From Bacteroidota bacterium (lineage in GTDB: Bacteria; Bacteroidota; Bacteroidia; 2-12-FULL-35-15), in the NCBI GenBank assembly GCA_947466965.1, contig CANIFU010000007.1:2249-66248 (forward strand): 64,000 bases of DNA, given 5' to 3'. Of the stretch, positions 59,827 through 64,000 are shown piece by piece; positions within the stretch are counted from its first letter, which is position 1; each line of letters begins with the position of its first letter. The position numbers were made by a program, and so were the translations under genes. Below the pieces are notes generated by a model that ran no database searches, was not told the DNA's origin, and saw nothing but the letters and a program-made list of their open reading frames with translations.

Positions 59827-61137
59827 TTACCTTCTTGGAGGTTTTGAACTTGCCGGTGTATTGTTGGGGGTTCCTCTGCTGGGGCTAGAAGAATTATTTC
59901 TTGGAGCATCATTTTGAGGCCTTTCGAATTTAGGTTGTTCAACCGGTTTTTGTCTGTCGTTATGATATACCGGATTTTCCTTGATCACCGGATTCTCCTT
60001 GTATACCGGTCTGTCGTTGTAAACGGGTTTCTCTTTATAAACCGGATTCTCTTTATAAACCGGATTTTCTTTATTAGCAGGCGTCTCTCTATAAGTTGGT
60101 TTTTCCTTATAAGCAGGATTGTCTGTTGATACAGGTCTGTTGTTATCTGGTTTGTAAGCAGGATTAACCGGGCCGGCAGGTTTTGAGTTGTCATTTCTGT
60201 TATCCGCAGGTTTATAAACAGATGCAGCAGAAGAGCTGGTATATACTGGTTTGATGCGTCCGTAATCATCTTTCGTCCAGTTTTCCGGATTGGCTTTTGC
60301 TTGTGTTTCAATCTCGGTCATCATGTGGCTTGCAAGAGAGGGTTGAGCAGTTACTCTGCCGTTTGAACCTGTCGTTCCGCGTGGTCCGTAGTAATAACTG
60401 TTATTGTCATAGCTATTGAAATAATTGTTGTTGTTTAAGCCACTGTAATATCCGTCCCAATATCCATTGTTGTAACCATTCATGTATGGATTATATCCGT
60501 ATCCGTAATTTCCATAGGGGTTGTATCCATAACTATATCCATAAGGGTTGTAACCGTATCCGTATGGATTATACCAAGGGTCGTATCCCCAACCCTGATT
60601 GCCATACCAGTAATAACTTGGGTTGTATGAATAGGTACTGTAACTTGGCCCCCAGAAATTGTAGCCCATGTAAACGCTTGTTCCGTAATTGTAGGGATCA
60701 CCTGTATACCAATAGGAGTTGGTATAATAGTTATCGTAGTAACCATAACTGCCACAGTTGTTGTGAAAACGTCTTAATCGGACAGAATAAGCGTCATCAT
60801 AATAATCGTCGTAGTTGAATGGTGTATTGTCGTTGTAATTATTGGTTGTGTTGTTAATGGTGGTTGTTCCATTATCTGATGGAGTGTAGTAGTCATCAGC
60901 TGGAGCGTCGCTGCTGCGTTTTGTATTCTGTGCAGCCAGTGCCGCCTCGTCCGCCTGCTTTTTTGCCTCTTCTTTTGCAAGGGCATCTTCTAGTTTACGT
61001 TTTTCCTTATCCGCTGCTTTGTCTTTTGATGAATAATAAATATCATCGCTATAAGTTTTTGATTGAGCTCCCTCCGGTGCTTTGCAGGCAGTAAACGCTA
61101 ATAAAAAGAAAGTCAGAATACTTAGAAAGGTTTTCAT
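59827..61137 (-). CDS. low-complexity lipoprotein (Tyr/Gly/Asn-rich core, hexapeptide xPVYKE repeat tail); paralog of 25033..26229
   Basis: Lipobox LLAFTACKA. Shares INNTTNNYN and NPAYKEK motifs with the 25033 gene. Has YGYNPYGY-type aromatic repeats and a C-terminal array of at least 7 NPVYKE-like hexapeptides. Confidence 0.7.
   Translation of the reverse strand: MKTFLSILTFFLLAFTACKAPEGAQSKTYSDDIYYSSKDKAADKEKRKLEDALAKEEAKKQADEAALAAQNTKRSSDAPADDYYTPSDNGTTTINNTTNNYNDNTPFNYDDYYDDAYSVRLRRFHNNCGSYGYYDNYYTNSYWYTGDPYNYGTSVYMGYNFWGPSYSTYSYNPSYYWYGNQGWGYDPWYNPYGYGYNPYGYSYGYNPYGNYGYGYNPYMNGYNNGYWDGYYSGLNNNNYFNSYDNNSYYYGPRGTTGSNGRVTAQPSLASHMMTEIETQAKANPENWTKDDYGRIKPVYTSSSAASVYKPADNRNDNSKPAGPVNPAYKPDNNRPVSTDNPAYKEKPTYRETPANKENPVYKENPVYKEKPVYNDRPVYKENPVIKENPVYHNDRQKPVEQPKFERPQNDAPRNNSSSPSRGTPNNTPASSKPPRR
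59970..60113. repeat. tandem 18-bp repeat array (CCGGATTCTCTTTATAAA-like units), coding for hexapeptide repeats on the minus strand
   Basis: Units at 59970, 59988, 60006, 60024, 60042 and 60060; neighbouring copies 60024..60041 and 60042..60059 differ at 4 of 18 positions. Confidence 0.85.
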
Positions 61138-61268
61138 TTTATACTTTAAATTGATGAAGGGGGATGATTTTTAAATCTTTTAAAATCGACAAAAGGTTTA
61201 ATTTTCTATTTTTACGATTCCTAAAGTCAATTATAAAATTACAAATACTATACCACAAAAAAAAGATT

Positions 61269-62741
61269 ATGAGCAAGGAGTTATCAACGAGAGAAGGAAA
61301 TTATTCTGAATGGTACAACGAATTAGTTGTCAAAGCAGATTTAGCAGAACATTCTGCTGTAAAAGGCTGCATGGTCATTAAGCCTTATGGCTATGCTATT
61401 TGGGAAAAGATGCAGCAGGCATTGGATAAAATGTTCAAAGATACAGACCATGTCAACGCGTATTTCCCCTTGTTCATACCCAAATCTTTTTTTAGCAAAG
61501 AAGCGAGTCATGTTGATGGATTTGCAAAAGAATGTGCCGTTGTGACACATTACCGTTTGAAAACGGCTCCTGATGGAAGTGTTGTGGTAGATGAAACAGC
61601 AAAGTTAGATGAAGAATTAATTGTTCGTCCGACCTCCGAAACCATCATCTGGAATACATACCGAGGCTGGATTCAATCGTACCGCGATTTACCTATATTG
61701 GTAAATCAATGGGCGAATGTGGTACGTTGGGAGATGCGGACACGTTTATTTTTGAGAACAACAGAATTTCTGTGGCAGGAAGGACATACCGCACATGCAA
61801 CATCAGCGGAAGCAGTAATTGAAACAGAAAAAATGCTGGGGATCTATGCAGAATTTGCAGAAAAGTGGATGGCGATGCCGGTGATAAAAGGAATTAAGAC
61901 AGCAAACGAACGCTTCGCAGGTGCGGTTGAAACCTATTGTATTGAGGCATTGATGCAAGATGGGAAAGCGTTGCAGGCAGGAACATCTCATTTCTTGGGA
62001 CAAAATTTCGCGAAAGCATTTGATGTAAAATTTGCAACAAAAGAAGGAACGCAGGAACACGTTTGGGCAACATCATGGGGGGTTTCAACCCGTTTAATGG
62101 GAGCTTTAGTGATGTCGCATTCGGATGACAAAGGTTTGGTTTTGCCTCCTAAATTAGCGCCATTTCAAGTAGTAATTGTTCCGATTTATAAAGGAGAAGA
62201 GCAATTGGCACAGATAAATGAAGTGGTTGCAAAGATGAAAAAAGCAATGGAAGCCAAAGGGATTACTGTGAAATACGATAACAGAGATACACAGCGTCCA
62301 GGTTGGAAATTTGCGGAATATGAATTAAAAGGAGTGCCTGTTCGAATAGCAATCGGAGGACGGGATCTGGAGAACGGAACCGTTGAGGTGGCGAGGAGGG
62401 ATACAATGGAAAAGGAAACGCTGCAGCAAGCCGACATTGAAAACAAGATCGAACATTTGTTGGAGCAAATTCAAGAAAATCTGTACCAGAAAGCAAAAGC
62501 AATGAATGATGCTAAAACTTATTCAGCCGATACGTACGAAGAATTTAAAAAGATTCTGGAAGAAACACCCGGTTTTATTATGGCACATTGGGACGGAACA
62601 CCGGAGAGCGAGCAAAAGATAAAAGAAGAGACCAAAGCGACCATCCGTTGCATCCCAATAGGTAATAAGCAGGAGCAGGGCTTGTGTATTTATAGTGGGA
62701 AGCCATCCACACAGCGGGTGGTATTTGCAAGGGCATATTAA
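61269..62741 (+). CDS. proS: proline--tRNA ligase (archaeal/eukaryotic-type class II ProRS)
   Basis: [27 protein letters not shown]... characteristic N-terminus, class II motifs and a C-terminal zinc-binding tail (CIPIG...C). The listed 61164 start is an AT-rich extension. Confidence 0.9.
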
Positions 62742-62762: not shown

Positions 62763-63455
62763 ATGGAAAAGAAAACACCAAGAGAATTGATCTTAAAAGC
62801 GCTTGTCGAGAAGTCGAGCATGAAGCAGGATGTGTATGCGAATACATTGAGTTCCTTTAATACCTTGAAAGCGGTCGCAAAGGAAGTATTGGCTGAGATG
62901 TCAAAGGACATTGCGACAAAAGATAAACGGGTGATCATTGAGTACCGCGAAAAAGGTGAATTTGAGTTCGAGATCAGAATTGCTGGCGATCTATTGATCT
63001 TCTCGATGCATACAAATATTTTTGAATTTGACAGGAGCCATCCGATCTGGAAGAGTTCGTATATAAAAGAAGATCATTTTCGGACTTTCTGCGGGATGAT
63101 CAACATCTATAATTTTCTGAACGATTCATTCAAATATAACAGAATAAATGATTTAGGTTATGTGATTGGGCGAATCTTTGTAAATAAAGAAAACCATTAT
63201 TTTGTGGAAGGAAAAAGACAGTTGGGTTTCTTGTATAACGACTTTGTGCATGCTGTTATAGATGAGCATGCGATCAAGGCAATTTTGGAATCAACGATAC
63301 TGTATTGCTTAAATTTCGACCTGTATACCCCGCCATTTGACGCCATTAAGGAAATTAGTGTGATGGATATGCAGTCGGTTAGTGAAAGTATGCAGATAAA
63401 AACAGGAAAACGCTTAGGCTTTCGTTTTCAAGCAGATAGTGATTCAATTGATTGA
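62763..63455 (+). CDS. hypothetical cytoplasmic protein
   Basis: 230-aa ORF with no signal peptide and no recognisable motif. Lies between proS and tRNA-Glu. Confidence 0.5.
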   Translation: MEKKTPRELILKALVEKSSMKQDVYANTLSSFNTLKAVAKEVLAEMSKDIATKDKRVIIEYREKGEFEFEIRIAGDLLIFSMHTNIFEFDRSHPIWKSSYIKEDHFRTFCGMINIYNFLNDSFKYNRINDLGYVIGRIFVNKENHYFVEGKRQLGFLYNDFVHAVIDEHAIKAILESTILYCLNFDLYTPPFDAIKEISVMDMQSVSESMQIKTGKRLGFRFQADSDSID

Positions 63456-63480: not shown

Positions 63481-63511
63481 TTTGCAGAAATAGAATTTTC
63501 ATTTACATTTG
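63481..63511 (+). promoter_or_regulatory. putative promoter for tRNA-Glu (-33 TTTG, -7 TACATTTG)
   Basis: TTTG at 63481..63484, then 19-bp spacing to TACATTTG at 63504..63511. The tRNA starts 18 bp downstream. Confidence 0.5.
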
Positions 63512-63528: not shown

Positions 63529-63600
63529 GGCCCGTTCGTCTAGGGGTTAGGACGCCAGGTTTTCATCCTGGTAAGAGGGGTTCGATTCCCCTACGGGCTA
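63529..63600 (+). tRNA. tRNA-Glu (anticodon TTC)
   Basis: GGCCCGTTCGTCTAGGGGTTAGGACGCCAGGTTTTCATCCTGGTAAGAGGGGTTCGATTCCCCTACGGGCTA. 7-bp acceptor stem (G1-U72 wobble), D-arm, anticodon stem CCAGG/CCTGG with loop TTTTCAT, and T-arm GGGGTTCGATTCCCC. Confidence 0.9.
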
Positions 63601-63616
63601 CAATAAACAACATCTA

Positions 63617-63652
63617 AATCCTTGCAAATCAATAGATTGCAAGGATTTTTTC
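63617..63652 (+). terminator. rho-independent terminator after tRNA-Glu
   Basis: AAATCCTTGCAAATCAATAGATTGCAAGGATTTTTTCTTTT. Confidence 0.8.
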
Positions 63653-63723
63653 TTTTGTAGGTGGATTTGTAGGTGGACTTTCGCTATATTAGCTGTAAAA
63701 TCAACCCTTTAAAACTAATCAAA

Positions 63724-64000
63724 ATGAAAGCTGCATTAGAATTATCTTCGAAACCGAACAGAGATGGGTTGTTTGAAATTTACATCCGTATTCAAGAGGG
63801 TAAAAAGAAGAAAAGAATTAAAGCGAATATTGCTGTAAAGCAAAATCAATTTAAAGCTAAAAATCATAATCTGAAATGGGTGTACAATCATCCAAATCAA
63901 CACGCTATTAATTCTGACCTAAAAGCGTTGATTGAAAGTTATAATGATGTGCTTTTTGCTAATGCCGTTTTGAATGATAGATTTTCTCTTCAGAAAGTTG
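63724..64000 (+). CDS. tyrosine-type site-specific integrase, N-terminal arm-DNA-binding domain (3' end outside window)
   Basis: MKAALELSSKPNRDGLFEIYIRIQEGKKKKRIKANIAVKQNQF... matches the Bacteroidota integrase arm-binding N-terminus (KxxxxGLxPIYIRI pattern). Located directly 3' of a tRNA gene. Confidence 0.75.
   Translation, partial: MKAALELSSKPNRDGLFEIYIRIQEGKKKKRIKANIAVKQNQFKAKNHNLKWVYNHPNQHAINSDLKALIESYNDVLFANAVLNDRFSLQKV

Follow-up and report, generated by a model that had tools for sequence, protein, structure and literature searches.

The window, by which we mean the whole 64,000-nucleotide stretch of Bacteroidota DNA that was analyzed, ends in a short region where a run of chromosomal genes meets the start of an integrase gene. 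Here, a prolyl-tRNA synthetase gene and a gene for a 230-aa protein without a family match lie upstream of a tRNA-Glu(TTC) gene, and the 399 bases that remain after the tRNA hold a hairpin, a pair of direct repeats and the 5' part of the integrase gene (Table 1). An earlier reading of the letters and open reading frames (hereinafter the sequence-only reading) had called the tRNA-Glu(TTC), and the gene is real: besides the ARAGORN prediction, the tRNA model RF00005 of Rfam recovers it with 57.8 bits, the gathering score being 29. A plausible promoter for this tRNA precedes it and would be chromosomal, lying outside the inserted DNA discussed below; its TTTG and TACATTTG boxes are presumably those of a Bacteroidota promoter, in line with the consensus of Bacteroides promoters. 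A TAnnTTTG box is likewise found upstream of the tRNA-Glu in two other loci (L218 and L219). A sigma-70 scan of the region upstream of the tRNA-Glu returned no site; as a side observation, such promoter and terminator scans are uninformative for this organism.

Table 1. Features at the 3' end of the window, in window positions.
Feature	Positions	Strand	Remarks
Prolyl-tRNA synthetase gene	61164-62741		Upstream of tRNA-Glu
Gene for a 230-aa protein	62763-63455		No family match; upstream of tRNA-Glu
Possible Bacteroidota-type promoter of tRNA-Glu	63481-63511	+	TTTG (63481-63484), 19 nt, TACATTTG (63504-63511); read from the sequence
tRNA-Glu(TTC) gene	63529-63601	+	ARAGORN; the only tRNA of the window
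First bases of the probable element	63602-63615	+	Resemblance to empty sites, in which rpsT follows tRNA-Glu, stops near 63601-63603
Hairpin with T-run, probable intrinsic terminator	63616-63658	+	12-bp stem 63616-63627/63637-63648; 9-nt loop
Tandem 12-nt direct repeat, TTTGTAGGTGGA twice	63654-63677	+	AGGTGGA boxes at 63659-63665 and 63671-63677
Sigma-70-like promoter match	63674-63701	+	TGGACT, 16 nt, TAAAAT; 9/12 matches; upstream of the integrase gene
Integrase gene, 5' part (92 codons, arm-DNA-binding domain)	63724-64000	+	Open to the end of the window

The integrase gene begins 122 nt past the end of the tRNA-Glu, in keeping with the distance of at most 125 bp given by the sequence-only reading. 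We take the ATG at 63724 as its start, rather than an upstream GTG, because M1 and the stretch MKAALELSS are conserved in the integrase family; the translation within the window begins MKAALELSSKPNRDGLFEIYIRIQEGKKKK. The 92-codon fragment finds no match in NCBIfam and scores 30.7 bits against the Arm-DNA-bind_5 model of Pfam (PF17293; cut-off 22.6, E 4.7e-7), which bears out the arm-DNA-binding N-terminal domain previously read from this segment. The catalytic domain falls outside the window, which ends at codon 92, and the completeness of the integrase is taken from a metagenome contig, L003, as that of the same strain. A look-up of public assemblies for exact copies of the 230-aa protein gave 23 contigs, L003 among them. 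This contig shares 99.98% identity with the window across 11,238 nt, a stretch that takes in all 399 nt past the tRNA; it matches the 277 nt of the integrase ORF identically and continues the protein to 431 aa. The full-length L003 integrase scores above the Pfam cut-offs for Arm-DNA-bind_5 (25.6 bits), Phage_int_SAM_5 (47.1 bits) and Phage_integrase (PF00589; 39.0 bits against 27.1). The catalytic domain that the sequence-only reading had proposed to look for downstream is therefore present, in the form R..K..HxxR..H..Y, with R276, K299, H376, R379, H403 and Y412 invariant in an alignment of 34 homologues. By these residues and its PF00589 match, as seen in L003, the protein is a member of the tyrosine recombinase superfamily; by its combination of Arm-DNA-bind_5 with a SAM-like core-binding domain it is a heterobivalent integrase of the Bacteroidota type.

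The matches of the integrase in the PDB (5hxy, 2a3v, 3nkh and 1a0p) range in E-value from 3e-7 to 4e-3, and the best of them, XerA (5hxy, E 3e-7), covers the catalytic domain only. Among the phages of INPHARED there was no integrase above 33% identity; a single-protein scan of IMG/VR was without a match, and a scan with the alignment gave integrases of at most 34% identity. Hence, the integrase family appears to be uncharacterized.

Scanning GTDB with the 230-aa protein, each species being represented by a single genome, produced 80 loci, in 55 of which a tRNA-Glu(TTC) follows the gene for that protein. In 32 of these 55, rpsT, encoding ribosomal protein S20, lies within 100 nt of the tRNA-Glu and no integrase is present, and two more have it within 330 nt; the order of tRNA-Glu and rpsT persists down to 52% identity of the flanking protein, as in Lentimicrobium and Flavobacteriales MAGs. 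The adjacency of the two genes is hence the ancestral arrangement, the empty site. Thus, the synteny of tRNA and integrase, which if uninterrupted in all relatives would have suggested an ancient domesticated copy, does not hold for all of them. The window itself contains neither rpsT nor a second integrase. At closer range, a locus with 93.7% DNA identity to the window (L011) ceases to align at 63603, and another (L008) aligns with L003, and hence with the window, only through the last base of the tRNA, past which it carries a tRNA-Met/Pro/Ala/Asn array. A family integrase follows the tRNA in only three of the GTDB loci, namely L019 (92% protein identity), L015 (85%, partial) and L022 (61%). 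The other occupied GTDB loci (L023, L025, L035, L038, L044 and others) were considered as islands and rejected, as they are heterogeneous and show no family integrase by tblastn; some of these non-family loci represent a different gene order, for example with ribosomal-protein-like genes in L065.

The same site is polymorphic within the species. Among the contigs encoding the identical 230-aa protein, L003 and L178 have an intact integrase; L001 and L006 keep 252 nt past the tRNA, with a frameshifted 43-codon remnant of the integrase followed by AbiEi and a 104-aa fragment of AbiEii; L002 keeps 75 nt; L008 has its tRNA array in this place; and the contigs L004 and L005 stop 59 nt past the tRNA. 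[quoted passage not shown] The site is a hot spot, its insert being intact, truncated or of another kind depending on the strain of the species. Further, when L019 is compared with the window's strain, the 5.8 kb of upstream flank are 73% identical in DNA and the module of the integrase and the adjacent 92-aa gene is 90% identical, which implies horizontal transfer of the module; movement between genomes is likewise reflected in a GC content of 0.328 for the island (3.6 kb) as against 0.377 for the flank.

The junction between the tRNA and the integrase has a stereotyped layout. In the elements of L015, L019, L219 and L225, a conserved (A/G/T)GTTAATAAC stands right after the position of the tRNA, and the geometry of hairpin, repeats and integrase relative to the tRNA end is alike in eight elements at three tRNA loci: the tRNA-Glu of the window, a second, unrelated tRNA-Glu (L219) and a tRNA-Gln (L184). 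The stem of the hairpin is an inverted repeat with 100% complementarity, and its predicted fold of -17.4 kcal/mol (z = -6.3) was matched in stability by none of 200 shuffles. Across the eight elements, 97.9% of the stem positions in the alignment are paired and compensatory changes are found in 6 of the 12 pairs; such pairing was reached by none of 500 shuffles, and sliding the register brings it down to 28-59%. A simple terminator scan did not call the hairpin at 63616-63648, probably because its 9-nt loop exceeds the limit of 8 set in that scan. The hairpin is absent from the empty sites and therefore constitutes DNA of the element rather than of the native tRNA locus. Its probable role is that of a terminator shielding the element from the promoter of the tRNA. 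Hence, of the terminator that the sequence-only reading had assigned to the tRNA as its own, the hairpin with its T-run is real, whereas its ownership passes to the element.

Downstream of the hairpin, the arrangement AGGTGGA-N5-AGGTGGA occurs once in the 64 kb, with 0 occurrences expected. The GGTGGA blocks are invariant in the alignment of eight elements, whose integrases are as little as 53% identical, and the spacers between them vary. Counted from the tRNA end, five elements at tRNA-Glu genes, one of them at a different tRNA-Glu locus, have exact AGGTGGA boxes at +58 and +70; the element at the tRNA-Gln has them at +59 and +71, and L095 has a GGGTGGA followed by an AGGTGGA at +69. The ATG of the integrase gene comes about 45 nt past the second box. 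The boxes are probably arm-type (P'-arm) sites that would be bound by the N-terminal domain of the integrase, a role that we assign from position and conservation, one set of such sites having been located and no second (P-arm) set. The second AGGTGGA of L010, at +9785, was considered and set aside as a chance occurrence. The sigma-70-like match before the integrase gene overlaps the second box and is not significant alone (one found against 2.4 expected). A further view of the junction comes from L225, a 3.7-Mb assembly that encodes a family integrase with the same hairpin and boxes and no tRNA beside it: its junction reads GGGACTAC followed by TGTTAATAAC, as compared with the tRNA end GGGCTAC followed by AGTTAATAAC in L019 and L219, and this likeness hints that the crossover region falls within the final bases of the tRNA.

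The content of the element in the window's strain type is visible from L178 and L179, which are 99% identical to L003 and extend the region past it. After the integrase, they encode proteins of 92 aa, 56 aa and 165 aa, an AbiEi-type protein (PADLOC, 194 bits, within 2.6 kb) and a 90-aa ORF; all contigs of the window's species end within about 3.6 kb of the tRNA. A complete AbiE system, with an AbiEi gene next to a full-length AbiEii gene, is seen neither in L178, where AbiEi lacks an adjoining AbiEii and an unrelated 90-aa ORF comes next, nor in L001, where the N-terminal fragment of AbiEii covers positions 8-96 of a 309-position model. The related elements carry other genes beyond the integrase. 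L096 (integrase 71% identical, at the same tRNA-Glu locus and with the 92-aa gene) is a prophage, with an Sf6-type small terminase, Terminase_3 and Peptidase_M15_4, the last of these an M15 endolysin. L095 and L022 (61%) carry a SIR2-HerA system, a second SIR2 gene, and T5orf172 and DUF2130 genes, and L184-L187 (53%, at the tRNA-Gln) carry a type I restriction system, a Schlafen/AlbA gene, AbiC and an Rce1-like protease, the restriction-modification system and AbiC being reported specifically for L184 and L187. Pilin, T2SS-type ATPase and secretin genes are found in L219 (58%, at another tRNA-Glu), and GASH, DO-GTPase, GAP1-N1 and endonuclease genes in L225 (57%); in L090 (91%), the integrase is retained, and a 5'-truncated 92-aa gene that keeps residues 30-92 is followed by genes for large T9SS-secreted proteins.

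The sequence-only reading had guessed at defense, resistance or conjugation genes as cargo. Defense genes do occur, with AbiEi in the strain type and defense systems, or a prophage, in its relatives; conjugation and resistance genes were not seen. Specifically, no relaxase-family Pfam hits were found among the called genes of L178 (3.6 kb) or of the partial elements L184, L219, L095 and L225 (about 10 kb), nor any tra genes of conjugation systems in the related, partial elements, of which up to 10 kb each were covered. The 3.6 kb available from the window's strain type contain no terminase, capsid, tail or lysis genes, and neither an oriT nor packaging genes were seen in them.

Among the small genes that accompany the integrase is that for the 92-aa protein. 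In L003 it is the next gene past the integrase and convergent with it; it stands beside the integrase in seven of the elements examined, and belongs to a family that co-occurs with the integrase family on the same contigs. The protein matches HTH_17 with 20.5 bits, under the Pfam cut-off of 27, and has weak matches to HTH and excisionase PHROGs; from position and conservation, it is probably a candidate excisionase or directionality factor. The 165-aa protein has homologues of 36-40% identity in L184 and L219; in L096 (the prophage) and L095, no homologue was detected. The conserved proteins of 158-165 aa, 303 aa and 400 aa received no function from PHROGs, and those of 165 aa and 400 aa have no match in Pfam or PHROGs.

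The far end of the element was sought by several routes. A 25-nt pattern of the tRNA 3' end, with up to four mismatches, matched only the tRNA itself in all 89 loci; 12-mer and 16-30-nt searches of L219-L224 gave one chance 12-mer inside a gene, and L225, scanned for direct repeats, showed none at the junction. A repeated copy of the tRNA 3' segment (attR), for which the sequence-only reading had proposed to look, thus failed to appear in the 1.7-11 kb of downstream sequence reached per occupied locus, none of which extended to the rpsT side; such a repeat may be short or lie farther out. Approaching the right flank from rpsT, by a protein search and look-ups of P0172 and P0173, recovered only empty sites of other species. 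A scan of metagenomes with AbiEi, attempted as a route to the far end via the cargo, was likewise discarded, as none of its 25 loci was in a tRNA-Glu/integrase context.

Taken together, the presence of the integrase catalytic domain, the empty sites in relatives and the stop of homology at the tRNA 3' end uphold the original reading of this junction as the boundary of an island, and we consider it likely that the final 399 bases of the window represent attL, the left junction of a mobile element that has integrated here. [quoted passage not shown] Briefly, we advance the following mechanism. This integrase would have recombined the attP of the element with an attB overlapping the tRNA 3' end, leaving the tRNA intact. 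The hairpin would then keep transcription that starts at the tRNA promoter from reading on into the element, the AGGTGGA boxes might be bound by the N-terminal domain of the integrase during the assembly of the recombination complex, and the 92-aa protein could act as the excisionase or directionality factor. As to its nature, the element in the window looks like a small island with defense or addiction cargo rather than a prophage; we favor an island because homologues of the 165-aa protein are found in L184 and L219 and were detected neither in L096 nor in L095.

These data have to be weighed against other explanations. The insertion might be an old one that has decayed and been immobilized, its right end lost and the locus kept as a fixed variable region by ordinary recombination. 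Such decay would account for four independent truncations from the left end (at +75 in L002, +134 in L010 and +252 in L001 and L006, and in the 92-aa gene of L090), for the IS21 element and secreted-protein genes that occupy the place of the element in L010, for the fragmentary AbiEii of L001 and its absence from L178, and for the failure to find an attR in the sequence reached. We nevertheless regard it as unlikely, given that the integrases of L003 and L178 are full length with all catalytic residues, that a module 90% identical between flanks of 73% identity indicates recent transfer, and that empty and occupied alleles coexist, with contigs breaking at the tRNA end (L004, L005, L027, L028 and L050). 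A milder form of the idea concerns the individual copy: as close strains carry decayed versions, the copy in the window could have an intact integrase and yet be immobile. That the element of the window's strain is instead a temperate prophage is suggested by L096, which combines a 71% identical integrase, the 92-aa gene and the same tRNA-Glu with small and large terminases and an M15 endolysin, by the matches of the integrase to PHROG integrase families, and by the small ORFs on the opposite strand beside the integrase, which resemble a lysogeny module. However, the 165-aa gene of L178 and L019 recurs in two islands that are not phage, L184 and L219, and went undetected in L096; AbiEi lies within 2.6 kb and the available 3.6 kb hold no phage genes; and IMG/VR and INPHARED are without an integrase above 35% identity. 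On balance, we find a prophage improbable.

The adjacency of tRNA and integrase might, finally, be fortuitous, the protein being an Xer-like housekeeping recombinase or the element not targeting the tRNA at all. XerA is indeed the best match in the PDB, and L225 is a family member without a tRNA beside it; however, the structural matches are weak (E 3e-7) and confined to the catalytic domain, and L225 retains at its junction a GGGACTAC resembling the tRNA end. The spacing and layout from the tRNA end recur in eight elements at three tRNA loci, the integrase gene is missing from most relatives, and the integrase possesses an arm-binding domain of a type that is typical of heterobivalent integrases and not known from the XerC/D recombinases. 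A coincidence of this kind is thus highly improbable.

A tyrosine integrase gene beside the 3' end of a tRNA is a textbook arrangement, an ordinary feature rather than a new kind of system; relatives of phage lambda and many genomic islands belong to the same type. Comparisons with well-studied systems help to define its parts. In phage lambda, attL presents the core, the P' arm sites and int, together with xis. The integrase described here shares with the lambda-type enzymes an arm-binding N-terminal domain, a core-binding domain and an R-K-H-R-H-Y catalytic domain; the integrase gene adjoins attL, tandem repeats 50-80 nt from the core occupy the place of the P' arm sites of lambda, and the small HTH gene next to the integrase would be the counterpart of xis. 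The two differ in that no sequence relationship is detectable beyond the catalytic fold, the arm domain is of the Bacteroidota type (PF17293), integration is directed at the 3' end of a tRNA, and the HTH gene is convergent with int, binding and directionality in the present element being predictions. As for the structures matched, XerA (5hxy), IntI4 (2a3v), 3nkh and XerD (1a0p) are alike in the catalytic HxxR...Y region and leave the arm domain uncovered. They are distant relatives only, and none of them is known to have the tRNA context.

Comparable in setting are the integrative mobilizable elements of Bacteroidota that insert at tRNA 3' ends: NBU1 at tRNA-Leu, NBU2 at tRNA-Ser, Tn6031 at tRNA-Pro and MTnPi4 at tRNA-Leu, with toxin-antitoxin cargo reported for NBU1. 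These four share with the present element a single tyrosine integrase, the tRNA 3' end and the phylum (PMC5704250). The elements described here differ from the NBU-like ones in targeting tRNA-Glu or tRNA-Gln, and no MobP relaxase or oriT was seen within the 3.6 kb of the strain type or among the precomputed Pfam hits over about 10 kb of the related elements. With tRNA-linked defense islands and the PICI and P4 satellites they have in common an integrase at the tRNA end, small regulatory genes and exchangeable defense cargo, and a closely related integration module is borne by a true prophage (L096) at the same site; in contrast to PICI and P4, no primase or replicase, packaging or capsid-redirecting genes were identified here. 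Satellite behavior is speculation.

With that proviso, we tentatively offer a broader idea, though we think it rather doubtful: that the set formed by the integrase, the 92-aa HTH protein and the proteins of about 55 aa and about 160 aa marks a family of small islands, as yet undescribed, that target tRNA genes in freshwater Bacteroidota. Being neither phages nor conjugative elements, they would shuttle AbiE, SIR2-HerA, type I restriction-modification, AbiC and GTPase conflict systems, with a phage of the L096 type as a possible helper in a satellite-like relationship. The islands share their integration module and attachment site with the temperate phage L096; were that phage to act as helper, they would be phage-satellite-like. 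To our knowledge, phage satellites have been little described in Bacteroidota.

For the organism itself, the junction marks the point at which, in an uncultured freshwater lineage of Bacteroidota, the core genome ends and a horizontally acquired region that varies between strains begins; the insertion site also accounts for the breaks that assemblies of this species show at this position. The empty site, with the tRNA-Glu next to rpsT, can be used as a diagnostic, as can the conserved attL signature, in which AGGTGGA-N5-AGGTGGA comes after a hairpin and keeps a constant spacing from the tRNA end (+58/+70 in most elements). Finally, the module of integrase and HTH genes may be used to find similar islands, together with their defense cargo, in metagenomes.

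The gene for the 230-aa protein, on the chromosomal side of tRNA-Glu, is widespread: its place beside prolyl-tRNA synthetase and tRNA-Glu is kept across Bacteroidia, with 297 relatives confirmed by tblastn among GTDB genomes, the lowest at 52% identity. Searches of Pfam and NCBIfam with this protein returned no match. Further upstream in the window lies a gene for a low-complexity protein of 436 aa in which Tyr, Asn, Gly and Pro are highly abundant; NPVYKE/KPVYKE motifs recur in its C-terminal half, and it has no Pfam match. Related contigs keep a neighbor of similar size.

Several contigs break near the 3' end of this tRNA-Glu, in assemblies that are independent of one another: L027, L028 and L050 end at it or at most 3 nt from it, while L217 and L093 start 29–30 nt ahead of it. 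Such breaks are the expected behavior of a de Bruijn graph when empty (tRNA-Glu followed by rpsT) and occupied (integrase-bearing) alleles coexist in one sample. In L008, a 4-kb contig with an identical 230-aa flank protein, homology to the window runs no further than the last base of tRNA-Glu, and 25 nt past the tRNA begins an array of tRNA-Met, tRNA-Pro, tRNA-Ala and tRNA-Asn genes separated by small ORFs. This array may represent another, phage-like insertion at this tRNA-Glu site, or else an assembly chimera.

Coordinates of features in the window and in compared contigs
Feature	Sequence	Position	Remark
230-aa protein gene	window	62763-63455	adjoins prolyl-tRNA synthetase and tRNA-Glu
436-aa low-complexity protein gene	window	59827-61137	- strand
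tRNA-Met, tRNA-Pro, tRNA-Ala, tRNA-Asn array	L008	3063-3814	
IS21-family insertion sequence	L010	17632-19965	variable region downstream of tRNA-Glu
IS21-family insertion sequence	L187	604-2927	within tRNA-Gln-type island
Second integrase; GTPase-centred gene set	L225	8298-9656 and 12692-19704	
Related island	L219	594-9184	different tRNA-Glu locus

Both IS21 elements encode a 513-aa IstA-like and a 253-aa IstB-like protein. In the 3.7-Mb assembly L225, the family integrase stands back to back with a second, different integrase of 452 aa, likewise bearing Arm-DNA-bind_5, with no tRNA between the two; its cargo genes (GASH, DO-GTPase1/2, GAP1-N1 and Endonuclease_NS) are predicted to form a GTPase-centred conflict system. 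The L219 island encodes a pilin-like protein, a prepilin peptidase, a T2SSE-type ATPase and a secretin, possibly a pilus or competence apparatus carried as mobile cargo. In the index of the assembly collection, the 92-aa protein found there appears in 55 blocks, from which 24 contigs were read.

Finally, AbiEi genes with 87–94% protein identity to the island copy occur in lake metagenome contigs from JGI (L192-L201), all of which lack tRNA-Glu, the family integrase and the 230-aa flank protein; in two of them other tRNAs lie near AbiEi, namely tRNA-Ser (L194) and tRNA-Arg (L198). The AbiEi module seems to move between islands.
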